A stretch of 64,000 nt of DNA from a virus: positions 1-64,000 of the IMG/VR virus record IMGVR_UViG_3300030616_000002; one strand, 5' to 3'. The translations under genes were made by a program, and so were the position numbers. Below are positions 7,572 to 64,000 of this stretch, in pieces; the stretch's first letter is position 1, and every line of letters starts with the position of its first letter. Under the pieces are notes generated by a model. It was given only the letters and a program-made list of their open reading frames with translations. It ran no database searches and was not told where the DNA came from.

Positions 7572-7598
7572 CAACGAACAGGCTGACAGAGGGAGGGC

Positions 7599-7700
7599 AT
7601 GATGCGGGCAGAGATCCATCTTTGGTGTCTGTATTTGAGCTTTGTTCTGATGGCCGAGGCAGGGCTATTGCTTGCGTCGTTGAGGTTTTCCGGATGCTGA
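7599..7700 (+). CDS. hydrophobic micro-ORF (33 aa)
   Basis: Own translation: MMRAEIHLWCLYLSFVLMAEAGLLLASLRFSGC. GGGAGGG lies just upstream, and its stop overlaps ATG 7694 of the next gene. Confidence 0.3.
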   Translation: MMRAEIHLWCLYLSFVLMAEAGLLLASLRFSGC

Positions 7701-12534: not shown

Positions 12535-12798
12535 GTGGCGACTGACCTGCGAGAAAAGATCCGTCAGCGAATCAAGACCATGTCACCGGCACAGCTAGGT
12601 CAGTGCTACGATGCGCTGTTCAGTCGTCGCTGCCTGTCCTGCGCACAGGTCGAGCAAGGCGATGGCGACCTGGCCGAGGGCAAGAACTTCATGGACGATG
12701 GAGGCGACGGGCTTGTCTATTGCCAGCGATACGAAATCTGGGTGTCGGGCTGGCACAACAAGAACCCGCACTGCTACGAGGAGGTGGACCGTGACTGA
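12535..12798 (+). CDS. hypothetical protein
   Basis: In frame with ORF 12520..12798. Start moved to the motif-defined GTG 12535 (MATDLREKIR...). Ends EEVDRD. Confidence 0.5.
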   Translation: MATDLREKIRQRIKTMSPAQLGQCYDALFSRRCLSCAQVEQGDGDLAEGKNFMDDGGDGLVYCQRYEIWVSGWHNKNPHCYEEVDRD

Positions 12799-14452: not shown

Positions 14453-14456
14453 GACG

Positions 14457-15317: not shown

Positions 15318-16265
15318 ATGGCTCGTGTACTGGTAACAGGCGGCGCTGGATTCATCGGATCGCACCTCTGCGATGCGCTGCTCATCCGCGGCGACGAGGT
15401 AGTCTGCCTTGATAACTTTTTCTCGGGTAGCCGGGACAACGTACAGCAGCATCGCGAGAATCCGCGCTTCGAGCTAATCCGCCACGATGTTGTTGAGCCT
15501 ATTTTGCTTGAGATCGATCAGATCTATCACCTGGCGTGCCCTGCCTCGCCGATCCACTACCAATACAACCCGGTCAAGACGACCAAGACTAACGTAATGG
15601 GAACGCTGAACATGCTCGGCTTGGCGAAGCGGGTAGGGGCGCGGCTGCTGCTAGCCTCTACCTCCGAGGTGTACGGCGATCCCGAGGTGCATCCACAGCC
15701 TGAGGATTACTGGGGACGGGTGAACCCTATCGGGCTGCGTTCCTGCTACGACGAGGGCAAGCGCGTAGCCGAGACGCTCTGCTTTGACTACCGCAGGCAG
15801 AACGGCGTGGACGCGCGCGTAGTGCGGATCTTCAATACCTACGGCCCGCGTATGGCTGCTGATGACGGCCGGGTAGTAAGCAACTTCTGTGTGGCGGCGC
15901 TCACCGGCAAGCCCCTGCTGGTATATGGGGACGGTAGCCAGACGCGGTCGTTCTGTTACGTACGCGACTTGGTCGACGGGCTGATCGCCGCGATGAATGG
16001 CGAGGCCGAGGGTATAGAGGGGCCGATCAATCTCGGCAACCCGGATGAGCGGACGGTACTAGAGCTGGCGCAGAAGATACTCTCCCTTACCCCGCCTGGG
16101 CCCGGCATCGAATACCGCGATCTGCCGGCAGACGATCCGGTCCGGCGGAAACCGGTAATAGATCGTGCTCGCAAGATCCTATGGTGGCGACCTACCGTCT
16201 CCCTAGATAGCGGCATAAGGACTACGTTAGAGAGCTTCCGCGAAAAAAACCTTGCTAAAGGCTAG
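15318..16265 (+). CDS. UDP-glucuronate decarboxylase (UDP-xylose synthase), SDR family
   Basis: 315 aa. [14 protein letters not shown] (Rossmann GxxGxxG), [15 protein letters not shown] (YxxxK) and [11 protein letters not shown] are characteristic of UXS-type enzymes. Confidence 0.88.
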
Positions 16266-16283
16266 CAAGGCTAGTAAGGCTAG
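16243..16283 (+). promoter_or_regulatory. candidate promoter C with CTAG-box
   Basis: AAAAAAACC TTGCTA (16252-16257), then GGCTAGCAAGGCTAGTAAGGCTAG (16260-16283). Overlaps the 3' end of the UXS gene. Confidence 0.4.
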
Positions 16284-16287
16284 TCAC

Positions 16288-16758
16288 GTGGCAACGCTTG
16301 GACGATCTGTGCCGAAGCCCGATCCGCCGTGGCGGTCGGAAGAGTACCGCGCGTACGTAGCAAGTCACAGGTGTTGTCTATGCCAGAAAAAACGGGGCCC
16401 ACAAGGGGGAGTCGTCGCGGCGCATATTGGATCGCGGGGAACCTCGCAGAAGCCGCCAGACTACCAGACAGTACCGCTCTGTTACGATTGCCACGCGAGA
16501 GAGCACGGGCGACCTGGATACGAGCCGCTATCAAGGGACGAGCGGGAGCACCTGGTCTGGGTCGCGTTGAAGCTAGCTGGTAAATTCATCGCAGCGATCC
16601 GATCCGAGACCCTAGATATCGAGCCTGGGGAAGCGCTGTCCTACCGAGAGCAGATAGAGGCGGGTAGGGAGCAGGTTCGCGCGCGCAGGAAAAAGAAAAC
16701 GAAGATCGGCCAGCGCAAGCCAGATAGCCGGCGGCCTAGAAACAAGGGGATCCGATGA
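16288..16758 (+). CDS. HNH/DUF968-like zinc-binding protein (candidate)
   Basis: In frame with ORF 16252..16758. I prefer GTG 16288 because it lies after the CTAG-box. CCLCQKK...AAHIG...PLCYDCHAREH resembles the DUF968-type motif. Confidence 0.4.
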   Translation: MATLGRSVPKPDPPWRSEEYRAYVASHRCCLCQKKRGPQGGVVAAHIGSRGTSQKPPDYQTVPLCYDCHAREHGRPGYEPLSRDEREHLVWVALKLAGKFIAAIRSETLDIEPGEALSYREQIEAGREQVRARRKKKTKIGQRKPDSRRPRNKGIR

Positions 16759-20546: not shown

Positions 20547-20893
20547 GCAAACAGCAGAAGCCGAACAAGGTGGGCTGGTGGAGATTTTGGCTGCCTAATA
20601 AGCGGCGGCCAGACATGGCGTTTGTCTCGGTGGCGCACGATGGGATGACGTTCTACGTTCACACGCACCGCTCTACTAGGAACGCGGCAACCCATCCAGC
20701 GAGACGGTGGGAGTTCGTTGATAATAAGCGCCGAGGAGTAGCGTGTTTAGAATGTGAACAGAAGCGACTCCGTAGGCCACGGTACAATCGCTGTCGATCT
20801 TGCTGTGATTCGCTTGAGGCCTGCCCTGATTATGTAAAGGGGCTCGGCGCAAATACGGGGATGGGGGATTTCGCCATGAAGGTCAGGAGATGA
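20543..20893 (+). CDS. hypothetical protein
   Basis: ORF track, 116 aa. Confidence 0.5.
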   Translation: MSKQQKPNKVGWWRFWLPNKRRPDMAFVSVAHDGMTFYVHTHRSTRNAATHPARRWEFVDNKRRGVACLECEQKRLRRPRYNRCRSCCDSLEACPDYVKGLGANTGMGDFAMKVRR

Positions 20894-21207
20894 GTGAAAT
20901 GAAGGTGACGAGATCACTCTTAGGGCGCGTTTTGTTCGCCCCGGCCATGAGCCCGCAGTCGGCAGTGTGGTTGTTTCTAGGGCTCGTGTTGATAACAGGC
21001 GCATGCGGCGCGGTGCTGGTTGCTCTTGGTTTCTACCCGGTCGCAATCGGCTGCTTTTTCGTCACCTATCTTTTAGAGCGTGCTCTTACGGATCAAATGC
21101 ACCGAGTCGATAGGCATCTCTGGAGCGAAGAAATCGAGCGGAGAAACGAAGTAGAAAAGGCGCTGCTTCAACGAATCAAAAAAGGGGGGGGGCGCAGCGA
21201 TGAGTGA
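20890..21207 (+). CDS. membrane protein (2 predicted TM segments)
   Basis: 105 aa. Hydrophobic stretches AVWLFLGLVLITGACGAVLVALGFYPVAIGCFFVTYLL. A G9 run at 21184-21192 lies near the 3' end. Confidence 0.5.
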   Translation: MSEMKVTRSLLGRVLFAPAMSPQSAVWLFLGLVLITGACGAVLVALGFYPVAIGCFFVTYLLERALTDQMHRVDRHLWSEEIERRNEVEKALLQRIKKGGGRSDE

Positions 21208-35816: not shown

Positions 35817-36242
35817 ATGACCATCGCCGATTTGGTCCAGTGGTTTGCGCAGCGGGATAAGCGTGGACCGCTACTCTTGGAACTCAAGCACAAGATCTGG
35901 CGGTTGCGAGATTGGGCGTGGCGCGGATCGCTCTGCCCTATCTGCGGTTCTCGTGAAATCGCCCGAGTGCGGATGTGCTCGCGGGTCTCTCGGTCCGGGG
36001 CAGGCGGCATATTCCCCCGCTGCAAGGCGTGCGGGTGGGATAGCGATAGGAGAGAGGAGTCGAGGTCACTCCGCAGAACGCTGATTCAGCGCGCTGTGTA
36101 TCGGCTGCTGATGGGCATGTGCTACCCGGGGAACAAGGGATTGCCGGGACTGCGCGGCTTCGAGTTTGAGCACATACACGAAGTCAAGACAGAGCCAATC
36201 AAGATAGAGGGCGTCAAGATTGAACCGATGAGGTTGCCATGA
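35817..36242 (+). CDS. hypothetical protein (N-terminal paralog pair, MTIADLVQWFAQR)
   Basis: In frame with ORF 35805..36242, from ATG 35817. The first 13 codons are nearly identical to those of 36239..36616. Confidence 0.5.
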   Translation: MTIADLVQWFAQRDKRGPLLLELKHKIWRLRDWAWRGSLCPICGSREIARVRMCSRVSRSGAGGIFPRCKACGWDSDRREESRSLRRTLIQRAVYRLLMGMCYPGNKGLPGLRGFEFEHIHEVKTEPIKIEGVKIEPMRLP

Positions 36243-36616
36243 CCATCGCTGATCTAGTCCAGTGGTTCGCGCAGCGAGGGGTAGCGCTGCTGTGCGACTC
36301 GGCGCGGCGGTACGAGAGCGAGCCAGCGCCAGCAGATAGGAAAAATCTGTGGAGCGGTAATCTCTATTCGCTTGAAACGGAGATCGCAAGCATTAAAAAC
36401 ACAGCGCATCAAAACTTGCTAGAGTGCTTGTGGTGCGTGAATCGTAGCGACGGCAAGATCGACGTCGAGGGGATCAAGAACACGATAGACGAGCACAGGC
36501 AGCGAGTGGCGGATCTCGCGATGAACGCACTCGCGATGCTCAAGTCATTGGACGACGCCGATCCCGAGCGCGTGCCCGGCGCCCCCCCCGAAAGCCAGTC
36601 CGGAGACGATGCTTGA
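36239..36616 (+). CDS. hypothetical protein (N-terminal paralog pair)
   Basis: ORF track, 125 aa; ATGA overlap. Confidence 0.5.
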   Translation: MTIADLVQWFAQRGVALLCDSARRYESEPAPADRKNLWSGNLYSLETEIASIKNTAHQNLLECLWCVNRSDGKIDVEGIKNTIDEHRQRVADLAMNALAMLKSLDDADPERVPGAPPESQSGDDA

Positions 36617-44731: not shown

Positions 44732-45297
44732 TGGTACGTTCAAAAAGGGCAGTCATTGGCGAAAGCCGAAGCTATACTGGAATAAGAAGTGGCTTCTACG
44801 CGAGTACGTCACCAAGCAGCAAAGCGCCAAGGAAATTGCAGATCACGCCGGATGTTCCGAGAACAGCATTTTTAACTGGTTAACAAAACACGGCATTAGG
44901 CGACGTTCTATTTCCGAAGCGCGTTCAATTAAGTATTGGGGAGCACAAGGATCAGCCAATCCAATGTTCGGTCGTTGCGATAAGGCTAATCCAAATTGGC
45001 GCGGTGGTGTCTCGCCGGAACGGCAGAAGTTGTATGCACGCTCAATGTGGAAGGCGATCAGAAAGGCAGTGTTCTCTCGGGACAATTTCTCTTGCCGCCG
45101 ATGCGGAGAAAAACCAGTCGGGCACAAGCAACTTCACACTCACCACCTAAGAGCATGGGCTAGAGACCCCGCGTTACGATTCGACGTGGACAATATCATT
45201 ACTCTGTGCCGGGGATGTCACGAGTGGATTCACAGCAAGGAGAACAAAAACCGTGAATTTCTGGAGTAAGGACGAAATACCGATCCACCTTCAGGAG
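44630..45297 (+). mobile_element. HNH endonuclease insertion 1 splitting the methyltransferase gene
   Basis: Bounded by a duplicated TACTT (44627-44631 and 45298-45302). Visibly lower GC. Contains the HNH ORF with its own SD. Confidence 0.55.
44709..45269 (+). CDS. HNH homing endonuclease
   Basis: In frame with ORF 44700..45269. ATG 44709 follows AAAGGAG. CRRCGEKPVGHKQLHTHHL...NIITLCRGCHEWIH is an HNH motif, and the N-terminal part has an HTH-like segment (SAKEIADHAGCSENSIFNWL). Confidence 0.8.
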   Translation: MASNRNSDGTFKKGSHWRKPKLYWNKKWLLREYVTKQQSAKEIADHAGCSENSIFNWLTKHGIRRRSISEARSIKYWGAQGSANPMFGRCDKANPNWRGGVSPERQKLYARSMWKAIRKAVFSRDNFSCRRCGEKPVGHKQLHTHHLRAWARDPALRFDVDNIITLCRGCHEWIHSKENKNREFLE

Positions 45298-47235
45298 TAC
45301 TTTAGGCCGGCACCGCAACTCGGCCTTGAGCCGGTCCACGACTGCCTCGGCTGGGCAACCGGCAACCGCTGCGGCGAGTGCTACGTGTGCAGGATGGTCG
45401 AGGTGTTCAGGGGCGTGTGGCGAGTGCTGCGGGACGACGGCCTGTGTTTCGTCAATTTGGGTTCGTCCTACGCTTCGCGTGATATGCCTGCCAGCCAGTC
45501 TCGCCGCGCTTGGAGTGGATTCTCATGTGGCAGCGATGACACAGAACGATCAGATTCTGGAGACTCTGATCGCGCTTGTCCCCATTGCGATGGTGAACGT
45601 CAAGCCGACTCTCCGATCCATCGTGACCGCACTCCTCGCACTGGCCAACAGCATGGCGCAGACGAGCCGCCCCCTTCGCTGACAGTCCATGATAACGCGC
45701 AAGAGGATTCAGTTTCAGCATCTCCTGGCGCTTCTCCTCCCTGCGCTCCGGGGTCCAGAACTCCTGTTTCATGTACTGCGAGTGCTTCGGACGCTTCCGA
45801 CCCCGCATGTGCGGTCGAGGTTTTCCTTTTAAGCGCTCAGACATCTTCTTCCGCCACGCGCCAGTGCGCTCATACGGTTGAACGCAATTCCGGCAAACCT
45901 TCGCTTCAGCCGATTTCGGCTGACCACACTGCGGGCACGGCACCTTCTTCCTTGGCATGTCATTCTCCTTTTGGTAGCGCTTCCAAAACATGCCCATATT
46001 ATAGCACCACGCCCCCTGGACTCAAGCAAAAAGACCTGAGCCTGATCCCCGCCCGCGTAGCCCTCGCCCTACAGGCCGACGGGTGGGTTCTGCGATCCGG
46101 CATCACGTGGGCCAAGGGCGTCTCGTTCTGCGAGCACTACTCGGGATCGGTCATGCCCGAGTCAACCCGCGACCGGCCTACCAGCGCATCGGAAATGATC
46201 TGGATGCTGGCCAAGTCGAACACGGCCCAGTACTGGACGCACCGCGACCTGCCCGGCACGAGAACGAAGCCGAAGCCGGATTATCGGTACGTGCACGCGA
46301 CAGGAGCAGAGCAGGTCGAGGAACCGGACAACTGGAAGACGAGCAAGGTGCTCTGCCCGGCGTGCGGCGGATCGCGCAAGGTCACGGTGCAACTTGAGGG
46401 AGACCTGATCGGCGAGACCGTGATCCCCTGCGAGCTGTGCAAGGGCAAGAAGGGCTCGATGGTTCCGGAGTGGAAGCGGATCAATCTCTGGCAGGGGCAC
46501 GATTACTACTACGATGGTGAGGCGGTGCGGGAAGCATACAAGATGTCATCTTGGACCGCGAAAACAGACAGCGAAGGGTCAACCAAGCGCGGGAAAGACG
46601 GCATTAGAAGCGGAGGAAAAGGAGCGGCACGAGCAGAAGGCGCGGCAGACGGATCGACCTACGGATCAACGTCGATGCAAAAGGCATACAGCCACGGCGG
46701 CCGCAACCTCCGCAACGTGTGGACACTGAACCCGCAGCCCTTCGCGGAGGCGCACTTCGCGACCTTCCCTGAAAGCCTCGTACGACCTTGTATCCAGGCG
46801 GGGAGCAGCGAGCGGGGCGTGTGCCCGGAGTGCGGGGCTCCGTGGTCCAGAGTGGTCGAGCGCGGCGAGCCAGACGACGAACAGCGCAGCGCTTGCGGGG
46901 CGGACTCGACCGGAGGCTATTCGGGGCAGGCAACCAAGAACTACGCAGCGGGTAGGGCTGAAGATCCGAGCGCAGTCAAGGCGCGGATTCTGGAAGGCAT
47001 GCGCGAGCGCCGCACGGTGGAATGGAGACCGACCTGCGGGTGCGAGGCAGGGGCCGTCGTGCCTGCGACTGTGCTAGATATGTTCGCCGGCAGCGGGACC
47101 ACGCTGCTGGTAGCCGAGAAGCTCGGGCGTGACAGCATCGGCATCGAACTCAATCCAGAGTACGCGGACATGGCACGGAAGCGGATAGAAGAGGGAACAA
47201 AGCAGGGAGACCTGCTGCTAGGGAGGGCGCAATGA
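45253..47235 (+). CDS. DNA N4/N6-methyltransferase, main part, containing a ~178-codon in-frame insert antisense to a second HNH gene
   Basis: 660 aa. VFRGVWRVLRDDGLCFVNLGSSYAS, then a low-complexity insert, then KDLSLIPARVALALQADGWVLRSGITWAK...PESTRDRPTSASEMIWMLAKS...NVWTL...HFATFPESL...VLDMFAGSGTTLLVAEKLGRDSIGIELNPEY. AAGGAG (45237-45242) precedes GTG 45253. Confidence 0.7.
   Translation: MNFWSKDEIPIHLQEYFRPAPQLGLEPVHDCLGWATGNRCGECYVCRMVEVFRGVWRVLRDDGLCFVNLGSSYASRDMPASQSRRAWSGFSCGSDDTERSDSGDSDRACPHCDGERQADSPIHRDRTPRTGQQHGADEPPPSLTVHDNAQEDSVSASPGASPPCAPGSRTPVSCTASASDASDPACAVEVFLLSAQTSSSATRQCAHTVERNSGKPSLQPISADHTAGTAPSSLACHSPFGSASKTCPYYSTTPPGLKQKDLSLIPARVALALQADGWVLRSGITWAKGVSFCEHYSGSVMPESTRDRPTSASEMIWMLAKSNTAQYWTHRDLPGTRTKPKPDYRYVHATGAEQVEEPDNWKTSKVLCPACGGSRKVTVQLEGDLIGETVIPCELCKGKKGSMVPEWKRINLWQGHDYYYDGEAVREAYKMSSWTAKTDSEGSTKRGKDGIRSGGKGAARAEGAADGSTYGSTSMQKAYSHGGRNLRNVWTLNPQPFAEAHFATFPESLVRPCIQAGSSERGVCPECGAPWSRVVERGEPDDEQRSACGADSTGGYSGQATKNYAAGRAEDPSAVKARILEGMRERRTVEWRPTCGCEAGAVVPATVLDMFAGSGTTLLVAEKLGRDSIGIELNPEYADMARKRIEEGTKQGDLLLGRAQ
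45452..45997 (-). CDS. HNH endonuclease nested antisense within the methyltransferase ORF
   Basis: 181 aa. CPQCGQP...CRNC zinc ribbon plus CEECGHDGSESRLDVHHRNGDKRDQSLQNLIVLCHRCHMRIH (HNH). On the minus strand, TTGAGT, 16 nt spacer and TATAAT (46003-45998) abut the ATG. Confidence 0.75.
   Translation of the reverse strand: MGMFWKRYQKENDMPRKKVPCPQCGQPKSAEAKVCRNCVQPYERTGAWRKKMSERLKGKPRPHMRGRKRPKHSQYMKQEFWTPERREEKRQEMLKLNPLARYHGLSAKGAARLRHAVGQCEECGHDGSESRLDVHHRNGDKRDQSLQNLIVLCHRCHMRIHSKRGETGWQAYHAKRRTNPN
45478..46011 (-). mobile_element. HNH endonuclease insertion 2 (antisense, keeps host ORF in frame)
   Basis: Lies between the conserved methyltransferase blocks NLGSSYAS (ends 45477) and PPGLKQKDL (starts 46012). 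Confidence 0.5.
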
Positions 47236-48647: not shown

Positions 48648-49267
48648 TGCAGTTAACCGAGGGGCAGGAGGCGGCGCTAGAGGTACTGCGGGCCAGCGAA
48701 CAGCCCATGACCACGGCATCCGTATTCGAGGGGTCTGGCGGGCTCGTATGCAAGAGCAGGAGCAATACGCGGCGGGTCCTTGTGGGCTTGGTCAAGCGGG
48801 GGCTTGTCGCTCGCGTAGGGACTGGCGAGTGGGCGGCGGTAGAGAACGGAGCGGCTAGCCCCGAAAAAGGGTCTATTTTTGTGACAGACGGCGAGGCAAA
48901 GCAGATCATCGGCGCTGCTCTGGCGTTCTACTTTGAATCCCTGCTCAAGACGGATCCCGAGGGGGCAGCGCGGGTAGCCTATACGGCAGGGCTACACAAG
49001 GTCGGGATGCCGCGGAGGACGCAGAAGAAAGCGGATGAACCGAAGCCGGAGCCGAAGCGTAAGGCGCTCCCTAAAAAGCTGACGCTTCAGAAGTTCTGCG
49101 GGAAGGCGGAGGCCGCATATCGGGCTGGCCGTTTTTCGTTAGACGAGTTGAGCGACGCGACGGGGCTCGGCCGCGACTACCTGCGGAAGATCATCCAGGG
49201 CAAGGCGCACCCGAGAGACGAGACCCTGGAGAAGATCTACGCGGCGGTAGAGGAGCACTTGTCATGA
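48644..49267 (+). CDS. DNA-binding protein (winged-helix N-terminus, HTH C-terminus; candidate)
   Basis: 207 aa. RRVLVGLVKRGLVARVGTGEW and LSDATGLGRDYLRKIIQG. Confidence 0.4.
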   Translation: MMQLTEGQEAALEVLRASEQPMTTASVFEGSGGLVCKSRSNTRRVLVGLVKRGLVARVGTGEWAAVENGAASPEKGSIFVTDGEAKQIIGAALAFYFESLLKTDPEGAARVAYTAGLHKVGMPRRTQKKADEPKPEPKRKALPKKLTLQKFCGKAEAAYRAGRFSLDELSDATGLGRDYLRKIIQGKAHPRDETLEKIYAAVEEHLS

Positions 49268-49674
49268 AGATCATCCGCCCCCCTCGCAGGATCAGCGTCG
49301 AGAGGCTAAAGCAGATCCACTACCACATTGACGTGTGCCACGGGCCCTACGGATCGCAGTGCGCCAACGGACACCGCTACGAGCCACAGGTCAGGACCAG
49401 CGATCAGGGAGAGCAGACGGTAGAAAAGCCTCCGCCTGTAGGTGTCCCGTGCCCGAAGTGCGGGGAGACCCTGGAGCGCGGACCCGAACGGTTCGTCGCG
49501 TTCCTGTATCGCGGCGGGCTGGACCTAGAGGCTCATGAGGCGCTGGGCGAGTGCTTGGACGTAGGCCCGGCCCGCAGCACGCAGGCAGAAGCGGCGGCAG
49601 ACGCCCGCGACATGGAGGACAGGCACGTGGGCAAGGGCAAGCGGCGGCACTTCCTGGTTACGGGGATCGCGTGA
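49264..49674 (+). CDS. hypothetical protein (zinc-ribbon CPKCG)
   Basis: ORF track, 136 aa. Confidence 0.5.
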   Translation: MKIIRPPRRISVERLKQIHYHIDVCHGPYGSQCANGHRYEPQVRTSDQGEQTVEKPPPVGVPCPKCGETLERGPERFVAFLYRGGLDLEAHEALGECLDVGPARSTQAEAAADARDMEDRHVGKGKRRHFLVTGIA

Positions 49675-50382
49675 GCTGGGAGATCATCACCGGCGACTGC
49701 CTCGACTGGCTGCGGGAGCGCGAGGCGGGGAGCGTCGATGCGGTGGTGACGGATCCGCCGTACGGCACAGGGGCATGGAAAAGACAGACTAGCGGTGCGG
49801 GAAGCGATCCAACGGCGAAACTAATCCGCGAAAAGTGGGACGTGTGGACAGAGGACTGGATCGAGCAAGCGCGGCGAGTAGCGAGGTGCGCCTTTGGTTT
49901 TTTTATCCCGTGGTCAGTCCGCCTAAAGAAACCCACGGGGGGGGGGGCGACTGTTCGTTTGGATTAAACCAGATCCTAGACCGCGGGCTGGCGGACAGCC
50001 GGCGTATGGCTTTGAGCCGTTCTATCTCGCAGGAAAGGTTCAGAACATCGGCGGGAATGATTGGTTTGAACACACGGCGCCTCGGCTCAATCGCGATCCA
50101 GAGGCGACAGGACACCCGCATCAGAAGCCCGTTGCTGTCATGGAGTGGCTATTGAGGTTAGCATGTCCTGTCGGCGGGTCTGTTCTTGATCCGTACTGCG
50201 GCAGCGGTAGCACGGGCGAAGCCGCTGTGAGGCTTGGGCTTGATTTTATCGGCATCGAGATCAACCCCGAGTATGCCGACATCGCCCGCGAGCGGTGCGC
50301 GAAGGCAGAGAGACAGCCTGACCTGTTCGTCAAGCCCCCGAAGCCCGAGCAGCTAGAGATAGGGACATATCCTACCCCTTAA
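49671..50382 (+). pseudogene. DNA N6-adenine/N4-cytosine methyltransferase interrupted by a +1 frameshift at a G11 tract (possibly phase-variable)
   Basis: Frame 1 (GTG 49671): VVTDPPYGTG... stops at 49965-49967. Own translation of the next frame from 49948: RLFVWIKPDP...GHPHQKPVAVMEWLL...VLDPYCGSGSTGEAAVRLGLDFIGIEINPEY, running to 50382. Removing one G would fuse them. Confidence 0.7.
49937..49947 (+). repeat. G11 homopolymer at the frameshift point
   Basis: Counted directly in acccac-ggggggggggg-cgactg. Confidence 0.9.
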
Positions 50383-55663: not shown

Positions 55664-58273
55664 ATGGCCAAAGAAAAGCTAACGCTGGTTAGACGCCAGA
55701 ATGGGCCAGATCTCGTCTTCTACGATGACGCGTGGGAACCCCGCGTAATCAAGATCGGCGAGTGGATCTCCGCCGTCGATCCGGTAGCCAAACTACCAGA
55801 GTTAGGCAGGCCGGAGCCGTTGCCTGGCGACGCAGAGCCAGCGGGACCGGTGTTCGTAAAGGGCGGCGTCAGGGTTCAGATCTTCCGCTCGCAGAAGAGT
55901 AGGGAAGCGCAGCAGGCAGCAGATGATAGTCCGGGGATCGATCGGCCAGAACGACACGGAGAACTCGCCAAGATCCGCGGGGGCAAGGAAGACTTCACGG
56001 CGACAACCGCGATTCTAATTCCCGAGGGCGGCCCGCGATCCGCTGACGCTGAGGGCTCTTGCGTAAGAGCGAAGGCTATAAGGATAGGGGAAGATGGGAT
56101 CCCCGCCGCGCTAAAGGACTTATCGCCGGATATCTACTGGGTGCTCGTACTCAACGGGCCAGAGCCGCCGCAGCAGGGGCAGCTTTTAGCAGCAGTTGAG
56201 AAACTAGACAGGAGTAGCGCGGCCCTCATCCAGATCTCGTGTGGCGTGGTGTGCTCGGCCCAGACGCTCAAGAGCCTACCTACAGACGCAACGACCAAGG
56301 CAAGCGATTTACCGAAAATAGCAGCGGCAAAGGGCGCTGCTACGATCAACGGCAAAGAGATCGTGATCAAGCTGCCTGGTATTACTGTGCCCAAGGGTCG
56401 GCCGAAAAAGTCGGCGGTCGGCGTAGTGGTCACGGTCCACAACGCGCTGCGGGCTACGTCGTACTGCCTCGAATCCCTGAAGCGCTTTGACTTCGGCGGC
56501 GGACTGAACCCCCGCGTGATCGTGGTCGACGACGAATCAGCGCCACACGTCGAAAAGAAACTCCGCGCTATCTGCGGGGAGAACAAGTGGATCTACAAGC
56601 GCAACATAACCCGGCAGGGATATACGCGCACGGTTACCTCCGGGCTAGATCACGCAGTTAAGCTCGGCTGCAAGTGGATCTGTATTCTCAACTCGGATAC
56701 ACTGGTTACTCCGGGCTGGCTCTACAAGCTGGTAAGGGCCGGTGAAACGGATCCAAAGATCGGCATGGTCGGGCCCTACTCTAATGCAGCGGTCCACTTG
56801 TCTCTGCCGCAGTGGCTACTAAAGGGAGAGGACCCGGTATCTATTGCGGGCAAGCTCGCGCTCACCTCGAAGCGCTGCTATCCCGATGCCCTGACCCCTA
56901 CCGGCTTCTGTCTGCTCCTTTCAAGCGAGGCGTGGAAAAAGCACAGGCCATTCCGGGACGATATCTACGGAGAGGCGTACGGCGAGGAAACCGAGTTCTG
57001 GGCGCAACTGGTCAAGGGCGGGGGGCGCGCGATCTTGGCCGACGACGCCTTTGTCTGGCACCAGGGCCACGCGTCCTACGGGCAGGAGCAAGGCCACGTT
57101 GCCGAGGGATTCGCTGTTGCAAAGTTCAAGGCACGGCACGGCGCATTGCTCCAGCAGAAGGCCCACGACTTCAACGCCACGGCGCACGAGCGGATACTAT
57201 ATCAGGCCAATAGGTTCCCGCAGGGGACGATGAGCAGGCGTCCGCGGATCGCGTTCTTCGCTCACGAATATGGGTTGTACGGCGGCGTCCTGGCTATCGC
57301 CAATATCGTTAACCGCCTGATCGTGCTCGGCTGGGATGCACGGATCGCGGTTCGGGTTATCCGCAACAAAGCGATCGACGCGTTGCCCCTGCTTACCCAC
57401 CCGGTACCGTTCGGCTCCAAGGCCAACTTCATGAATCACTTTGCGTCGGAGATGTTCGATAGCGGGATTCTCTGCGCTACGGTTTGGGATACGGCGTTCC
57501 CGGTTGCCGAGGTAGCGAAGATCAACAAGGGGATCAAGCCCTGCTACTTCATCCAAGACGATGAAACCACTTTCACGGATCCCGATGGCGAACGGTTTGT
57601 TTCCGCAGGCCCGGTAATCGAGTCCTACTCCCACATCCGAAAGAAGATCGTTAACTCGAAGTGGGTCGTTGATCGGATCGCCGGAGAGCACAAGGTCGAC
57701 GGCTGTGTCTATATCCCGGTCGGAGTAGATACCAACCTATTCCACCCGCGGCATAGAGAGGACTCGACGCCAACGGTACTGTTCTTCTGCCGTCCAGAGA
57801 CACCGCGCCGCGGGGCAGATCTAGTACAGCGGGTATGCAGCGAGTTGACCGCGCGCTACCCGGATCTCCGCCTTGTAACCTACGGCGGGACACTGCCGAA
57901 TATGCCGGCGGCCGTCGAGCAACTAGGAACGATCCCGCAGGAAGAGGCCGCGCAGATCTACTCGCAGGCAGACGTATTCCTGGAGGCTTCGCACACGCAG
58001 GGATTCGGATTGCAGGGGCTAGAGGCGATGGCCTCAAGATGTGCGGTGGTATCAACGCGTAACCGCGGAATCGACAACTACGGGCGGGACCAGCAGAACT
58101 GCACGCTCATAGATATTGGCGATCAAGAAGCGGCCGTAGGCGCGATCGTAGAGCTGATCGAAGATCATAGCAAGCGCCAGCGCTACGTTGATGCCGGAAT
58201 GGAGACCGCTGCCGAGTTCGATTGGTGGCGGATTGCGGAGCAGTGGGACAAGGAATTGAGGAAGCTGTTGTGA
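55664..58273 (+). CDS. bifunctional glycosyltransferase (unknown N-domain + GT2 + GT4/GT1-type domain)
   Basis: 869 aa. GT2 part: VGVVVTVHNA...VIVVDDESAP...ILNSDTLV (DxD-like). C-terminal GT1 part: VLFFCRPETPRRGADL...ADVFLEASHTQGFGLQGLEAMASRCAVVST (E-x7-E type motif). Confidence 0.8.
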   Translation: MAKEKLTLVRRQNGPDLVFYDDAWEPRVIKIGEWISAVDPVAKLPELGRPEPLPGDAEPAGPVFVKGGVRVQIFRSQKSREAQQAADDSPGIDRPERHGELAKIRGGKEDFTATTAILIPEGGPRSADAEGSCVRAKAIRIGEDGIPAALKDLSPDIYWVLVLNGPEPPQQGQLLAAVEKLDRSSAALIQISCGVVCSAQTLKSLPTDATTKASDLPKIAAAKGAATINGKEIVIKLPGITVPKGRPKKSAVGVVVTVHNALRATSYCLESLKRFDFGGGLNPRVIVVDDESAPHVEKKLRAICGENKWIYKRNITRQGYTRTVTSGLDHAVKLGCKWICILNSDTLVTPGWLYKLVRAGETDPKIGMVGPYSNAAVHLSLPQWLLKGEDPVSIAGKLALTSKRCYPDALTPTGFCLLLSSEAWKKHRPFRDDIYGEAYGEETEFWAQLVKGGGRAILADDAFVWHQGHASYGQEQGHVAEGFAVAKFKARHGALLQQKAHDFNATAHERILYQANRFPQGTMSRRPRIAFFAHEYGLYGGVLAIANIVNRLIVLGWDARIAVRVIRNKAIDALPLLTHPVPFGSKANFMNHFASEMFDSGILCATVWDTAFPVAEVAKINKGIKPCYFIQDDETTFTDPDGERFVSAGPVIESYSHIRKKIVNSKWVVDRIAGEHKVDGCVYIPVGVDTNLFHPRHREDSTPTVLFFCRPETPRRGADLVQRVCSELTARYPDLRLVTYGGTLPNMPAAVEQLGTIPQEEAAQIYSQADVFLEASHTQGFGLQGLEAMASRCAVVSTRNRGIDNYGRDQQNCTLIDIGDQEAAVGAIVELIEDHSKRQRYVDAGMETAAEFDWWRIAEQWDKELRKLL

Positions 58274-59031
58274 ACTGGGACAAGCCAGACCGCAACTTCG
58301 TGATCATGGGCATGGCCCGGAGCGGGACTAGCCTTGCCTGTAAGCTGGTCAGTGAGCAGGTAAGAAACTCCTACTGCCTCAACGACGCAGAGATCAACTT
58401 CAACAAGGTGCCAGCACTGCTGGCCGAAACCCGTAGGTGCCTGGTCAATCGAGAGCCCGTCACTAACCGCTTCAGGGGCGATGAGCTTTCAAGCGATACG
58501 GTTCGGGTACTAGCTCCCTTGGAGCCGCGAGTAGCAACCGGAGACTTTAATAGCAACGCCGCAGTCGGCGTGAAAATGATCCCGGAGTACCGCAAGGCGA
58601 TTGCTGCTGGGTATCTCGTAATCGCTATGCTTCGAGATCCGGTCTATGCGATCGCTAGCTGGGGAAGCCACGATATCGCGTGGGCCCACGTTACCGACGA
58701 CGACATGGATCCGATCTGGCGATATAGGGGGATCAAGTTCAAGATGAGTTCGCAGGTCGAGCGGCAGTGCGAGATCTGGGAGTTCTTTGCAAAGCAGATC
58801 CTAGAGGCCAAGGCTAGCGGCAAGGTACAGGTTGATGTCTGGAAATACGAGGGCCTTGTAGCGTTGCCCGATCTTCATATCCGAGACTTTGCTAGCTACT
58901 TCGGGCTCGCGGCAAAGCGCGGAGTCCGCCTGGCCAACCTGAACGACCCATCGCGATTCTACGGAATAAGAACAATCCGTGACGCCGTCGCGGAGCTTTG
59001 CCCATCAAGGCTGGAGTTCGGTTATGCCTGA
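58270..59031 (+). CDS. sulfotransferase family protein (type B paralog 1)
   Basis: In frame with ORF 58222..59031, from GTG 58270 (GTGA overlap). MGMARSGTSLA is a 5'-PSB-like loop and AMLRDPVYAIAS is a 3'-PB-like motif. Confidence 0.7.
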   Translation: MNWDKPDRNFVIMGMARSGTSLACKLVSEQVRNSYCLNDAEINFNKVPALLAETRRCLVNREPVTNRFRGDELSSDTVRVLAPLEPRVATGDFNSNAAVGVKMIPEYRKAIAAGYLVIAMLRDPVYAIASWGSHDIAWAHVTDDDMDPIWRYRGIKFKMSSQVERQCEIWEFFAKQILEAKASGKVQVDVWKYEGLVALPDLHIRDFASYFGLAAKRGVRLANLNDPSRFYGIRTIRDAVAELCPSRLEFGYA

Positions 59032-59803
59032 CCTCGTAATTACTGGCCCGTGTCGCAGCGGTACGGCACTATTGCACACGCTGGTCAACGATTATGTGCC
59101 CAACGCGATCTGCACCAATGAGGTGGTGAACAAAGGAATCGCTGGGCTGAAGGCATACTTCGCTGCGACCCGCAAGGCAGTCAACGCGGGCAAGCCGATC
59201 GCCAATCGCTACGCGCGAGACGGGTCCTTATCTGATAACTCCTGGCGCAAGGGCGCGGAGATACAACGCCGCGTAGTCGAGAAGCCGCTAGAGGGTGACT
59301 GGCTTATGGCTACAAAGGTCATGCTTGGGTGCATGGATCATATTCCCGAGATCGTTGACCTCGGATTCCCCGTTGCCGTGATAGTCCGAGATCCTGTCTA
59401 TACTCTGGGCTCATGGGGGGACCCGAAGACCAGGGGACAGACGGTCGGGCGTATCACGGAAAACGACATGCACAAGTGGTGGGAGAAACACCCGTTCCCG
59501 TTCAACAGGATCGATGCAATCGGAAGACGAGCGGAATACTGGAACTACCTGGCCAGCACGATCTACGAGTCGATCTGTATTGCCCCTAAGGGCACGGTAC
59601 GATTGTTCCGTTACGAGGATCTCGTAACCGATACGATTGGCGAGTTGCAGAAGATTACCAAATGGTTTGATATGGACGATCCGATCGGTGCGCCAAAGCT
59701 CAAGAGCGCCAACAGAGACGATCGATACCCAGTGAGGATGGGTGAGATCAAAAAGGTTGTCGGGAGGCTTTGCCCGATACGGGATAAGTTTGGATACAAA
59801 TAG
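59024..59803 (+). CDS. sulfotransferase family protein (type B paralog 2)
   Basis: In frame with ORF 58979..59803, from ATG 59024. TGPCRSGTALL and VIVRDPVYTLGS. Confidence 0.7.
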   Translation: MPDLVITGPCRSGTALLHTLVNDYVPNAICTNEVVNKGIAGLKAYFAATRKAVNAGKPIANRYARDGSLSDNSWRKGAEIQRRVVEKPLEGDWLMATKVMLGCMDHIPEIVDLGFPVAVIVRDPVYTLGSWGDPKTRGQTVGRITENDMHKWWEKHPFPFNRIDAIGRRAEYWNYLASTIYESICIAPKGTVRLFRYEDLVTDTIGELQKITKWFDMDDPIGAPKLKSANRDDRYPVRMGEIKKVVGRLCPIRDKFGYK

Positions 59804-59812
59804 GAGGGACTG

Positions 59813-60922
59813 ATGCGCTTTCTGTTCATAGGCGCGCACTATCCAGCGCTGCGAAGGGAACTGCGGAAGCTCGGCCACGAGTGCAAGGACGTTGACCACT
59901 GGGCCCTCTTCTGCAGGCGCGGGGCGCTGGCTGCCGCGGAGTCTTGCCACCCAGAGGGTACCGAGGGCGGTACGCAGTCGGCAGTCAATGATCATGTTCG
60001 CCGCGTAGCGCTTGAGTACAAACCTGATGTTATCGTGCAGTGGAAAGGCTGGATCGACGGGGCTCGCTTTATTCTCCCCGATACGATCAGCTACCTGAAG
60101 GATGAGTTAGATTGCCTGACCGTTTACTGGAGCGTTGACGATCCCGATTTCGTCGGCTTCTGGCGGCAGCACATGAGCGGGATCGGCGTCTGGGATGTGG
60201 CCCTTACCTGCTGCGCTGCGAGCAAAGAGATCTACCGAAAGGCTGGAGTCAGATATCCTCACTATTTCCTGCCGGCCTTTGATACCGAGTGGCCGATCGA
60301 TACGCTCGAAGGCGAACGCGAAACCGCGGATCTCGTTGTCGCTGGTCACTCCTACGCCCCGATCCACGGGGCAGACATGGGGCGGGCAGCCTTCGCGCTA
60401 GCGGTCAAGCGGGCGGGCTACAAGGTGGAGATCTACGGGCCCAACCCGGAGATGTGGACGACTCCGGGCGGTATCTTGGTAACAGGGCACCCGGAGCTAA
60501 GGGAATGTTACCGGGGCTGGCTACAGCATGACGACGTGTGGAAGGCGTATATCCGCGGCAAGGTCGTGCTCAACAACCATCTGCGAAAGGGCGGGGGATA
60601 CGACAAGCGATACACGGGCTACTGCAACGACAAGATCTTTCAGATCGCCGGGGCCAACGGCGCAACGCAGCTCATGGATTACCAGCCGGGGATCTCTCCG
60701 GACGTATATACTGCGGGCCTAGAGTTCGTACAGTATCGCAAAAGCCTAGAGCCGCAGGAGTGCCTTGATTCGGCTTTTGAGATCTTCGAGGACCTAATCG
60801 CTAACGACGACGTTAGGTACGGCATGCGGGATGCTGCGCGCAAGCGCACGCTAGCCGAGCACACATGGAGACACCGAGCCGAGCAGCTTATGCAAATTTG
60901 CAAAACAGGAGGAAAGGGGTAG
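59813..60922 (+). CDS. CgeB-like glycosyltransferase (candidate)
   Basis: 369 aa. The overall layout and the C-terminal ...RKRTLAEHTWRHRAEQL resemble CgeB/DUF3880-type GT1-like proteins (recalled). Confidence 0.5.
   Translation: MRFLFIGAHYPALRRELRKLGHECKDVDHWALFCRRGALAAAESCHPEGTEGGTQSAVNDHVRRVALEYKPDVIVQWKGWIDGARFILPDTISYLKDELDCLTVYWSVDDPDFVGFWRQHMSGIGVWDVALTCCAASKEIYRKAGVRYPHYFLPAFDTEWPIDTLEGERETADLVVAGHSYAPIHGADMGRAAFALAVKRAGYKVEIYGPNPEMWTTPGGILVTGHPELRECYRGWLQHDDVWKAYIRGKVVLNNHLRKGGGYDKRYTGYCNDKIFQIAGANGATQLMDYQPGISPDVYTAGLEFVQYRKSLEPQECLDSAFEIFEDLIANDDVRYGMRDAARKRTLAEHTWRHRAEQLMQICKTGGKG
60891..60902. promoter_or_regulatory. perfect 12-bp palindrome TGCAAATTTGCA (copy 5 of 5)
   Basis: Read directly; 23 nt upstream of ATG 60925, inside the 3' end of the preceding gene. 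Confidence 0.65.
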
Positions 60923-60924
60923 AG

Positions 60925-61662
60925 ATGCCACGCCCTCTTCCCGCCTGCGCGCGGCTCGTTATGGCGAACAAGGAAAGAAACAAGATCGTTTCGTTTCCCC
61001 GGTCAGGCATTTCGTGGTTGTTCCTCCGGACCAATCGCTTTCTACTGCACCGGTTCGGCATTGAGGACACGAGCCCTACGGCCCGGTTCTTGTCGCACTC
61101 GCACTTGGGCTACTTGCCGCACAACGATAAAACAGTGATTCACCATTCTATGCGACACAAGTTGAACTATCCAGAAGGCACGAGGGTAACGGTACTGCTA
61201 CGAGACGCGCGCTCGATTCTCGCCTCTGTGTATCATTATAGACGGCGAAACGTAAACGGCTGCTGCGAGATTGCTAGTGAGTTTGTAGCTAGTAATACGG
61301 GCGCGTCCTGTTTGAGCGCTTTTCTGAACGACGTCGCTTTGCTTGCGAGCAGGGCAGAGAAAAACAAGTGGGACCTACGATTTATCTACTACGAGGATAT
61401 GCTAGATCCGCTTTTCCTTGATTGTATCCCAGACATTCTCGGGCTCGGGTGCGTGCTGACGGATATTGAGAGGGAAGCCCTAGCCGAGGACAGCAACTTC
61501 ATAGTGCATCCGTCAAGGTTATACGAAAGACTCAATGACGCCGATTCGAATTACCAGAAGAACAAGTACAAGGAAGCATTTGGCGAGAAAGACGTGCGCT
61601 TCATCGAAGATCACATGAAGCGGTTTTGCAAACTGCGGCAATACAGCGTGCGGTATTGCTAG
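60925..61662 (+). CDS. sulfotransferase family protein (type A paralog 1)
   Basis: In frame with ORF 60865..61662. ATG 60925 follows AGGAGGAAAGGGG. SFPRSGISWL, VLLRDARSILAS, IYYEDML. Confidence 0.65.
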   Translation: MPRPLPACARLVMANKERNKIVSFPRSGISWLFLRTNRFLLHRFGIEDTSPTARFLSHSHLGYLPHNDKTVIHHSMRHKLNYPEGTRVTVLLRDARSILASVYHYRRRNVNGCCEIASEFVASNTGASCLSAFLNDVALLASRAEKNKWDLRFIYYEDMLDPLFLDCIPDILGLGCVLTDIEREALAEDSNFIVHPSRLYERLNDADSNYQKNKYKEAFGEKDVRFIEDHMKRFCKLRQYSVRYC

Positions 61663-61671
61663 GGAGGAATT

Positions 61672-62202
61672 ATGGAACCGATGGTAGGGGCGGACGCTTG
61701 GGAGCGTTATTGGTCAACACCGAATCCTGATCGCAGAGACCGCAAGTGGCCGCTATATACGAGAATGGCGCTGCTGGTGGTTGACGTTGCGGAAGGCAGG
61801 CAGGTCAGTGTTGCCGAGGTCGGATGCGGGGTCGGCGGTTTTTTGGATCGCCTGCGTGGTTTGAAGGGGATCAACAAGATCGGCTTTGACATCGCGCCGA
61901 CTGCAGTAGAAGCGTGCAAGAACCGGGATCACAATGCGTTCATCGCGGATGCCGCTGATCTTCCGGTTGACGGCAGCTTTGATATTATCGTCGCGATCGA
62001 TCTGCTCGGCTACCTAGAGGATCCCCACGCTGCCCTACTACACTGGCGAGACCTAACGCCAGGGGGGGAGCTGATTGTCGCGGATCCCTACTACGATACT
62101 GACGTGCTAAAGCAGACAATAGAGGGCGCAGGGTTCAGCGTAACCGACGAGCGCATGGTGACGGCATCTAGCAAGGCGTTTCGGATTGTGGTAGCCAAGT
62201 GA
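61672..62202 (+). CDS. class I SAM-dependent methyltransferase
   Basis: 176 aa. VAEVGCGVGGFL (motif I), GFDIAP, IIVAIDLLGYLEDP. Confidence 0.8.
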   Translation: MEPMVGADAWERYWSTPNPDRRDRKWPLYTRMALLVVDVAEGRQVSVAEVGCGVGGFLDRLRGLKGINKIGFDIAPTAVEACKNRDHNAFIADAADLPVDGSFDIIVAIDLLGYLEDPHAALLHWRDLTPGGELIVADPYYDTDVLKQTIEGAGFSVTDERMVTASSKAFRIVVAK

Positions 62203-62915
62203 GGGCGAGGAGCTACTTTATCTCGTATCCGCGATCCGGTAGTCACTGGATCAAGCAGCGTATACGATTGCTGCTCGCCGGGATCAGCGGAGTCGATAGC
62301 GACCCGGACCAGCGATACAACTGGACCCACTACGGCTATGCGTTCAACCCGAGCCGCAATATACCAGGCCGAAAGGTAAAGCCGCCGAGAAAGTCAAACG
62401 TAGTGCTACTGCTGCGCGATGCTGTTCCGATCGTGGGATCAACGTATCACTTCATGCATACGCGCTTGGTTGAGTTAGGCCCGGAAGATCGCAACCTGCA
62501 GATAGAAAAGGATCATGACGCGTTCGTTAGGGGCGGCTGGGGCGTATCAAGATACTGCGCCTTTTTGAACGAGGTATCAGATCTCATGGAGAGCGCGCAG
62601 GAGCTACGCTGGCGGGTCAAGCCTGTTTTCTACGAGGACCTGTTCAGCGAGGAGTCGATTGCAGAGCTTCCGTGGATACTCGGCTTGAGCTTCTGGGTAT
62701 CGCCAGAAATCAGCAGAGATATCTTTGAGCAAACGAGGCAGCTAATCAACCCGTCCCTGAAAGCGCAGAAGGGCACGATAGCAACGGAGAGATACCAGGC
62801 CACGAAGCACAGCAATGTGATCAGTAAAGAATCCGAGCGATACATTCGGGGCTACATGGACAAGCACTGTAGGCTCGGGCTCTACCGAGAGCGCTACATA
62901 GATAGGGGCGAATGA
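62199..62915 (+). CDS. sulfotransferase family protein (type A paralog 2)
   Basis: 238 aa. SYPRSGSHWI, LLLRDAVPIVGS, VFYEDLF. Confidence 0.7.
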   Translation: MRARSYFISYPRSGSHWIKQRIRLLLAGISGVDSDPDQRYNWTHYGYAFNPSRNIPGRKVKPPRKSNVVLLLRDAVPIVGSTYHFMHTRLVELGPEDRNLQIEKDHDAFVRGGWGVSRYCAFLNEVSDLMESAQELRWRVKPVFYEDLFSEESIAELPWILGLSFWVSPEISRDIFEQTRQLINPSLKAQKGTIATERYQATKHSNVISKESERYIRGYMDKHCRLGLYRERYIDRGE

Positions 62916-63571
62916 AAATGAGAACTCAAAACTTTTTCATTTCGCACCCGAGATCGGGGACGCAGTGGACAAAAAGAAGAATTAAGGCCATTCAAGAATG
63001 GCGCGGCATTGTGCCCGGCAACAGGGTGACGTTCTCGCATTTTGGGTACAACCCCATGACCCCACGAAACCCAAACAAGCAGAGAAACGTCATTGGCCTT
63101 AATGTGACCGTTCTTATGAGGGATCCGTGTGCTTTGTTTGCTTCATATTATTGTTTTTACAACGGTCAGGCCAGGAAACACCGGGATCGCCCGGAGGCAC
63201 GGAGCCCCGTTGAATTTGTTTTGGGTGATTATGGAATTTCGAGACTGTGCTCGTTTTTGAATGATGTTGATCGTGTTGTCGTTCAAGACGCGGCAAGTAA
63301 AAACAACCGGATTAATTATTTGTTCTATGAGGATCTTTTTAATGTGGATCGGTTTGCCAAGATGATGTTGCCCATTATGGACACCGGGCGCGCGCTAGTG
63401 GGCAAAGAGATAGAAATTCTCAGCAAACATCACACGATGGACAGGAATGCGCAAATCAACAAATATCGTGAAACGCTAACGCGCGAAGCAATAGATATAG
63501 TACGCGATGGGATGCGTTCTGGTTGTAGGTTGGCTGCATATCGTAAGCGCTACCTAGAGAAGGGCGATTAG
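62912..63571 (+). CDS. sulfotransferase family protein (type A paralog 3; AT-richer)
   Basis: 219 aa. SHPRSGTQWT, VLMRDPCALFAS, LFYEDLF. Noticeably lower GC. Confidence 0.7.
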   Translation: MKMRTQNFFISHPRSGTQWTKRRIKAIQEWRGIVPGNRVTFSHFGYNPMTPRNPNKQRNVIGLNVTVLMRDPCALFASYYCFYNGQARKHRDRPEARSPVEFVLGDYGISRLCSFLNDVDRVVVQDAASKNNRINYLFYEDLFNVDRFAKMMLPIMDTGRALVGKEIEILSKHHTMDRNAQINKYRETLTREAIDIVRDGMRSGCRLAAYRKRYLEKGD

Positions 63572-63572
63572 C

Positions 63573-64000
63573 ATGGGCCCAGCAGAGCACAAGATGTTCC
63601 AAGCCCTAAACGGCACGTTCCCTGAAAAGATAGACTTGATCAACTCGCCGGTTGAGCGCAAGCTACACTTGGGCTCCGGCGTTGAGGTTGACCCGAAGTG
63701 GACCAACATTGATCGGTCGTACGCAAAGCCGCTGCCGAAACAGGGCAAGCAAGTACAGCTTGACATCTTGCGCCTGAATGAACACTACAAGCCGGGCTCC
63801 GCGGATTTGATCTTGAGCCATCATGTTGTCGAACACCTGAGTTACCGGGTTGTGCTAGACGCGATCAAGCAGTGGGCCGAAATTCTAGCCCCGGGCGGCT
63901 GTATGTATATCTGCGTGCCTGAGGTAGCATGGGCTATTGACTGCGCGCGCGGCGGGCCTCACTGGGCCCTACAGCCCGACTATAGGCGCGGCAAGTTCGA
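63573..64000 (+). CDS. class I SAM-dependent methyltransferase (partial, runs off window end)
   Basis: Own translation: MGPAEHKMFQALNG...LHLGSGVEVDPKWTNID...ADLILSHHVVEHL...LAPGGCMYI. Methyltransf_11-like pattern. Confidence 0.6.
   Translation, partial: MGPAEHKMFQALNGTFPEKIDLINSPVERKLHLGSGVEVDPKWTNIDRSYAKPLPKQGKQVQLDILRLNEHYKPGSADLILSHHVVEHLSYRVVLDAIKQWAEILAPGGCMYICVPEVAWAIDCARGGPHWALQPDYRRGKF

Follow-up and report, generated by a model that had tools for sequence, protein, structure and literature searches.

The window analysed here, a stretch of 64,000 nucleotides of phage DNA (positions 1 to 64,000 of IMG/VR virus record IMGVR_UViG_3300030616_000002), carries a DNA methyltransferase gene whose two halves lie in adjacent reading frames and meet at an uninterrupted run of 11 G (G11; 49937-49947, + strand), read directly from the window sequence. 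The N-terminal fragment (49671..49967, + strand; 98 aa) occupies the frame of the catalytic DPPY motif and is also called as a 98-aa gene on the source contig. Its GTG start at 49671 overlaps the TGA of the upstream open reading frame (ORF) 49264..49674 in a GTGA start/stop arrangement of the kind typical of translational coupling. Translation in this frame gives VSWEIITGDCLDWL...DAVVTDPPYGTG...FFIPWSVRLKKPTGGG and then ATVRLD, the final six codons of the fragment being out-of-frame read-through past the tract; followed to its stop codon at 49965-49967, the frame reads ...DAVVTDPPYGTG...FFIPWSVRLKKPTGGGATVRLD. The C-terminal (+1) frame (49927..50382, + strand) is open after a TAA at 49924-49926 and ends with a stop at 50380-50382, translating as GGGRLFVWIKPDPRPR...HPHQKP...DPYCGSGSTG...GIEINPEY.

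The site at which the frame changes is narrowly bounded. With the C-terminal frame open no earlier than 49927, and the codon for the invariant Arg93 (CGA, 49948-49950) directly 3′ of the G11 run, the change is confined to 49927-49947, an interval of 21 nt of which the run makes up 11. We computed the product expected from each tract length. Full-length protein results from G10 (236 aa) and from G13 (237 aa); tracts of G8, G11 or G14 leave a product of about 98 aa, and G9 or G12 one of about 160 aa in the third frame (161 aa for G12). Gain or loss of one G would thus toggle the frame of the full-length methyltransferase, as expected of a contingency locus. A preliminary description of this DNA, which had joined the two halves at 49937-49947 and held that G10 or G13 would restore an intact enzyme of about 236 aa, is borne out in its coordinates and its arithmetic. 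Beyond the tract, 144 codons remain open, and neither half of the gene carries a secondary lesion.

When the frame is repaired by removal of one G, the 236-aa protein matches the Pfam family PF01555 (N6_N4_Mtase) with 92.7 bits and E=4e-26, against a curated cut-off of 26.7, and PHROG 67 (DNA methyltransferase) with E=2e-56. The separate halves match the N- and C-terminal parts of the Pfam profile, the C-terminal frame reaching E=4.8e-20 alone. At least 3000 homologs were found at E<=0.001, the best among the matches listed being only about 53% identical; the best homologs are intact single chains of 220-257 aa whose alignments cover 86-97% of the repaired protein. We aligned the repaired protein with the 16 closest homologs examined (44-55% identity). 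The N-terminal fragment aligns with the N-termini of these 16 intact proteins, the repaired protein retains all 38 columns that are invariant in the family, on either side of the tract, and the three glycines that the tract would encode fall in a segment of variable length. A profile built from this alignment matches CcrM (PDB 6pbd, E=5e-34), a DpnA-type enzyme (5hek, E=3e-30) and M.RsrI.

The motifs that characterize this family are distributed across both halves of the gene. Catalytic motif IV, DPPY (49752..49763, + strand), corresponds to residues 28-31 and is invariant in the alignment; Pfam positions 1-43 match residues 22-71 around it. Directly after the tract comes the RLFVWIKPDP block (49948..49977, + strand), in which Arg93, Trp97, Lys99, Asp101 and Pro102 are invariant, followed by the HPHQKP motif (50113..50130, + strand), with H148, P149, Q151 and K152 invariant. 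The S-adenosylmethionine (AdoMet)-binding motif I, DPYCGSGSTG (50188..50217, + strand), corresponds to residues 173-182 in a region matching Pfam profile positions 144-220. Motif IV (28-31) precedes motif I (173-182), the circular permutation that marks the beta class, and the DPPY form of motif IV suggests N6-adenine specificity. A confident AlphaFold2 model of the repaired protein (mean predicted local distance difference test score 83, predicted template modelling score 0.81) places the tract residues within a low-confidence loop (79-91) between strands 71-78 and 92-101, which we take to be a tolerant surface loop. The genes neighbouring the split methyltransferase include no endonuclease partner. 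As judged from its motifs and matches, the split locus is one gene, encoding a small orphan DNA amino-methyltransferase of the beta class with motif IV before motif I. It is the second DNA methyltransferase of the window, as had been described: the first, an intact N6_N4 (PF01555) methyltransferase of 660 aa, lies 2.4 kb upstream (45253..47235, + strand). The first enzyme resembles the split gene only near motif I, and a different specificity is therefore likely.

We asked how unusual the run is against the composition of the window. Its G runs of six or more comprise 13 of length 6 and one each of lengths 7, 9 and 11, the last being the longest. The window's own run-length decay predicts 0.006 runs of at least 11, and 1-6% of windows simulated under Markov models of orders 1-5 contain a G or C run of at least that length. 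GGG supplies 27.6% of Gly codons; among the 15 Gly3 tripeptides of the large ORFs, about 0.3 encoded entirely by GGG are expected and one is seen (the G9 run sits in a shorter ORF, outside the set used for this count). GGG-GGG pairs are otherwise depleted about two-fold, with four seen and about 8.5 expected. The G11 run is unusual, not astronomically so, and codon statistics alone are no proof of selection; codon choice, considered as proof of an evolved tract, proved only mildly suggestive. Documented phage poly-G tracts span 7-11 G (PMC12633550).

What is striking is that the G11 run coincides with the only broken gene. All homopolymers of six or more in the 64 kb were checked and found harmless elsewhere; no other gene is broken at one, which argues against a sequencing platform with general homopolymer trouble, and the next 9.5 kb of the contig past the window contain no further long runs. 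The G9 run at 21184-21192, cited as a parallel in the preliminary description, is not an ON/OFF site. It does lie near the 3′ end of an ORF, five codons before the stop of 20890..21207 (...IKKGGGRSDE), and it disrupts nothing there; a C8 run at 36582-36589, nine codons before the stop of ORF 36239..36616, likewise breaks no gene. A change of length at G9 or C8 would only swap the last few residues, a form of C-terminal switching with neither inactivation nor fusion. Within the split gene itself a T7 run (49898-49904, Phe-Phe-Ile) lies 33 nt upstream of G11, is in frame and matches the conserved Phe78. An A7 run at 16243-16249 was considered as a programmed frameshift and rejected: of the two ORFs that meet there in different frames, one (15318..16265) encodes a nucleotide-sugar epimerase and the other (16252..16758) an HNH endonuclease, and since these genes are unrelated the run simply marks the boundary between them.

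A homologous phage gene varies in just this manner. BLASTP aligns the 251-aa Bpm protein of Bordetella phage BPP-1 with the repaired window protein over its full length at 32% identity (E=1e-23). BPP-1 bpm contains a G8 run, in frame, at a Pro-Gly-Gly-Val sequence directly before motif I. BIP-1 has G9 and BMP-1 has G10 at this site, both out of frame, and the genes are otherwise identical over the 956 nt compared; a fourth Bordetella phage isolate has G8 again. The in-frame length is the version annotated as a gene in these phages. The tract variation has been noted as a possible control point of expression (PMC4791379 and PMC12633550, citing a 2004 report in J Bacteriol). At the corresponding site, within 30 nt upstream of motif I, the window gene reads GTCGGCGGGTCT and has no run. 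This difference in tract position implies that the window tract arose independently.

We surveyed IMG/VR for the Bordetella arrangement with a pattern scan requiring a run of at least 8 G within 30 nt upstream of methylase motif I codons. At least 120 contigs match, with runs of 8-13 G at Pro-Gly-Gly codons of PF01555-type methylases. A locus was scored as frameshifted when at least 80 open codons of the DPPY frame led up to the run and the motif-I frame was closed just upstream. By this definition the 120 tract loci examined divide into 61 intact, 25 frameshifted at the tract, 23 ambiguous and 11 cut by a contig end, such that about one-fifth of tract-bearing loci are out of frame exactly at the run. 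A control scan for the same motif with Pro-Gly-Asp codons and no run returned 99 intact and no frameshifted loci among 120 (Fisher P=5e-10 versus the tract loci). Conceptual repair of the tract yields matches to the family profile from N to C terminus for 27 frameshifted loci, some of them in several separate stretches. Tract length differs within five of the 14 clusters that share near-identical flanks, two of these five being clean ON/OFF pairs (L064 with G8 and L049 with G9; L082 with G8 and L141 with G9). In GTDB genomes the same pattern found 53 stretches, of which 11 are frameshifted and 27 intact. One of these genomes, the Flavobacteriaceae metagenome-assembled genome (MAG) chromosome OZ244911.1, has three methylase genes with a G tract before motif I (L266, L274 and L276), two of them out of frame; switchable methylases may abound in this genome, or it may be a long-read assembly that contains homopolymer errors.

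Real length variation appears to be the simplest reading of the survey, given its tract specificity and the Sanger-era Bordetella case, and a G tract before motif I looks like a widespread ON/OFF site of phage methylases. In the literature we found no other described example of a motif-I-proximal G-tract site besides BPP-1 bpm, and our search returned no paper treating tract-specific frameshifting in phage methylases systematically. The position used in the window gave a different result. A scan elsewhere for G9 before W.K.DP returned a single match, a non-methylase locus best taken as chance, and a Gly run at the window tract position is absent from all 16 homologs of the alignment, a weak test for want of closer relatives. 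A broader proposal would be that poly-G tracts have evolved repeatedly and independently as an ON/OFF device in orphan beta-class methyltransferases, across many unrelated phages and prophages and at two or more tract positions, namely the Pro-Gly-Gly site that precedes motif I and the window site, which is new; we advance this tentatively and think it somewhat more apt to prove wrong than right.

For the window gene itself we favour, at about an even chance, the reading that G11 is real and reversible and that the gene has been caught OFF in a slippage-prone switch. The ancestral in-frame allele would be G10, read as ACG GGG GGG GGG (Thr-Gly-Gly-Gly), and slipped-strand mispairing during replication would add or remove G. 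One extra G ends translation six codons later, so that the downstream catalytic and AdoMet-binding regions are not made; G11 and G12 would thus truncate the enzyme before its substrate- and AdoMet-binding parts, and G10 or G13 would restore it. Runs of 10-11 G have an intrinsic tendency to mispair by strand slippage, and the gene should therefore flip at a high rate between G10 (ON) and G11 or G12 (OFF), with progeny that would be a mix of methylating and non-methylating genomes. The likely payoff would be bet-hedging, in which methylation protects against host restriction enzymes of matching specificity at the cost of exposure to methylation-dependent (Type IV) nucleases. That such a switch is adaptive we hold with much lower confidence than that the G11 run is real and reversible. 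For the window phage we infer that G11 is the true majority allele, that the gene switches and that switching may be advantageous. The phase-variable switch of the preliminary description is plausible by strong analogy, with the gene structure behind it and, from outside the window, the G8, G9 and G10 alleles of bpm and the tract-specific frameshifts of the survey.

Several points weigh against a reversible switch. The tract length rests on one assembly of one contig without a close relative, and some of the frameshifts in the survey may themselves be sequencing errors, several of the genome matches having the look of long-read MAGs. The window tract and the Bpm-type site lie at different positions, so the support that the survey lends to the mechanism is by analogy only. 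At the position of the window tract the nearest homologs (about 53% identity) lack a Gly tract; the tract is thus not conserved and could have arisen by accident in this lineage. Under the observed codon usage an all-GGG Gly3 would be only moderately unlikely by chance, and the second, intact methyltransferase of the same phage could make the split gene dispensable. One alternative is a sequencing or assembly artefact: the phage would in truth have an intact gene with G10 (or G13), the additional G being a homopolymer miscall. The break is exactly one base, it falls in the longest homopolymer of the window, both gene halves are flawless and a single assembly reports it, all of which speak for an artefact, as does the known increase in indel error that every platform, Illumina among them, shows in G-rich motifs and at or after long homopolymers (PMC4719071). 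However, the 64 kb contain no other homopolymer-linked frameshift despite G9, C8 and many runs of 6-7. A MEGAHIT-style short-read de Bruijn consensus follows the majority k-mer path and should report the majority allele, and PCR stutter shortens tracts more often than it lengthens them. Genuine tract-length variants also occur in the Sanger-era genomes of the Bordetella phages, and we regard an artefact as unlikely, though far from negligible. A plain and recent loss of function, in which G11 is real but marks a mutational hot spot in a dispensable gene heading to decay, with any switching incidental and unselected, strikes us as improbable to a similar degree. It would fit the absence of the tract from all homologs found, a codon usage that yields the run by chance at roughly the 0.1-0.3 level, the intact PF01555 enzyme 2.4 kb upstream and a syntenic relative (L006) with no methylase homolog anywhere in its locus. 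Against it, secondary lesions are absent, the 144 codons downstream of the tract are open and no invariant residue has been lost; on mechanistic grounds a G11 run, however it arose, will frequently revert, and the recurrence of G tracts across many phage methylases suggests more than accident.

Two further explanations would leave the G11 allele functional or the gene divided by nature. In the one, G11 still yields full-length enzyme by recoding, either through +1 ribosomal frameshifting on GGG GGG GGG G or through slippage of RNA polymerase. On a G run, re-pairing of tRNA-Gly in the +1 frame can be perfect, which counts in favour of the ribosomal version. Transcriptional realignment, for its part, usually takes place at homopolymers of eight or more (PMC3711429). 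Yet the shift site is unconserved in any homolog, no slow or stop codon follows the run (the next codon is the common GCG), and the downstream RNA forms no stable structure relative to shuffles (z = -0.59). Transcriptional slippage would have to delete 1 nt here, and in transcriptome-wide work slippage insertions were confined to A or T runs and absent from G or C runs, with homopolymer deletions rare (PMC5574713). The Bordetella phages, in addition, have the in-frame length annotated as the gene. Recoding is, in our estimation, very improbable. In the other, the halves would be the subunits of a naturally split methyltransferase, as might be supposed from the gene caller, which reports one ORF of 98 aa and another of 80 aa. 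Between 49927 and 50139, however, the C-terminal frame contains no ATG, GTG or TTG, and with no start before 50140 the 71 conserved codons there, comprising RLFVWIKPDPRPR and HPHQKP, could never be translated on their own; all homologs are, moreover, single chains. Mycobacteriophage Juniper1, taken up as a possible precedent for a split enzyme, was set aside because its two-piece match consists of two separate complete genes. The missing start codon effectively refutes the two-subunit reading, which we consider the least credible by far.

The window derives from a 94,112-bp ENA metagenome contig (ERZ27252234, k141_1547066; window position = contig position - 14), the k141_ name of which indicates a MEGAHIT assembly. 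Nearly all of its genes lie on the + strand. They include a replication initiator, a DnaB helicase, a DNA polymerase III beta clamp and HNH proteins, together with the structural genes for a large terminase, a portal, an S77 prohead protease and a T4-like Gp23 capsid protein that is at most 24-27% identical to those of cultured phages. The split methyltransferase gene sits just upstream of the head module. Searches around it for a promoter, a terminator or RNA structure gave nothing beyond shuffles. Megablast against phages found no close relatives, exact-protein look-ups with the neighbour protein and both fragments recovered the source contig only, and patterns of the DNA flanking the tract had no match in JGI metagenomes, IMG/VR or GTDB genomes. 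Capsid and protease searches returned only short contigs at 70% identity or a 41%-identity relative without the methylase. The homologs P0001 and P0003, tried as tract comparators, are intact and belong to unrelated phages, and are uninformative on the tract.

Two other regions of the contig caught our attention. Downstream of the T4-like major capsid gene, and starting at a distance of about 1.8 kb from it, a block of about 12-15 kb (55664-64000 of the window, continuing to about 68 kb of the contig) holds an 869-aa GT2+GT1 glycosyltransferase fusion, several GT1/GT4 glycosyltransferase genes, a sulfotransferase-like gene, four small-molecule S-adenosylmethionine (SAM) methyltransferases and an RMNT_CmcI-like gene. 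Such a block is unusual inside a phage structural module, and it could be a cluster for virion glycosylation or for remodelling of host-surface glycans. Amid the replication genes, the segments 6115-8548 and 12611-15296 encode a ParB-like protein, a PAPS-reductase-domain protein, a 613-aa protein without a family match and a radical-SAM-like protein; taken with the two methylases, these four hint that the phage has additional chemistry for modifying DNA or nucleotides.

Should the tract prove real, it would amount to a heritable, reversible coin-flip on a single DNA mark, one that would affect which hosts and defence systems each virion survives. It would also warn annotators that a methylase 'pseudogene' broken at a G run may be a gene that can switch. 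The pattern, in that tract-specific frameshifts are common in phage methylases, is of wider value than the single locus, and it makes epigenetic bet-hedging by phages testable. Were poly-G indeed a recurrent device, phage populations would routinely hedge between methylated genomes, safe from classical restriction, and unmethylated genomes, safe from methylation-dependent nucleases; this would be the virus-side counterpart of the phase-variable restriction-modification (R-M) systems of bacteria. What the single case contributes is a second tract position for a mechanism that was noted in the Bordetella phages in 2004 and has been little studied since.

Among known systems, the window enzyme resembles in its motifs (DPPY, HP.QKP and DPF.GSG) the N6-adenine methyltransferases of the CcrM/M.HinfI-like and DpnA-like groups. 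CcrM (6pbd) and the DpnA-like enzyme (5hek) are its best profile matches of solved structure, covering nearly the whole protein; at 236 aa it is shorter than CcrM (366 aa) and lacks the CcrM C-terminal domain. With bacterial phasevarions, which are built on phase-variable Type III mod and Type I hsd genes (PMC5909438, PMC7383803, PMC5149525), it shares a simple-sequence repeat inside a DNA methyltransferase ORF, which in those systems turns methylation ON and OFF. The term 'phasevarion' has no support here: phasevarions involve Mod or HsdM/S subunits of chromosomal R-M systems that control host regulons, whereas the window enzyme is neither a Type III nor a Type I mod gene product but a phage-borne, orphan, Type II-like beta-class methyltransferase with no partner nuclease among its neighbours.

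Closer parallels exist in phages. The A9 repeat of the T2 agt gene has been shown experimentally to impose an ON/OFF trade-off between TgvAB and McrA/BC (Gomez, Barrick and Waters 2025, PMC12633550), and receptor-binding genes of Fletchervirus phages carry poly-G tracts (Sorensen et al. 2021, as cited in PMC12633550). These loci, like that of the window, have a homopolymer within a phage gene and reversible frameshifts, putative in our case. T2 agt is also a DNA-modification enzyme for which ON versus OFF trades one restriction system against another, and the benefit in the window phage would mirror it, modified genomes evading classical restriction and unmodified genomes evading modification-dependent nucleases. 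The enzyme classes differ (a glucosyltransferase in T2 and tail fibres in Fletchervirus, compared with a methyltransferase here), and switching rates and phenotypes have been measured for both of those systems.

The nearest counterpart is bpm, which encodes a homologous small orphan beta-class PF01555 phage methyltransferase with the same motif order and contains an intragenic poly-G run that encodes loop Gly and in which one or two G toggle the frame. The phages are very different, BPP-1 being a temperate Bordetella podovirus and the window phage an uncultured phage of at least 94 kb with a T4-like capsid; the Bordetella phages display tract variation among sibling genomes, compared with the single genome available here. 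The window tract is longer (11 G versus 8-10 G in bpm) and, unlike that of bpm, lies about 80 codons (about 240 nt) further upstream, before the RLFVWIKPDP strand. The putative switch of the window is, as far as the comparison of the two genes indicates, the same mechanism as that of bpm in the same protein family at a different codon position. A slippage-prone arrangement in phage methylases is already known, and what is new here is the position of the tract.

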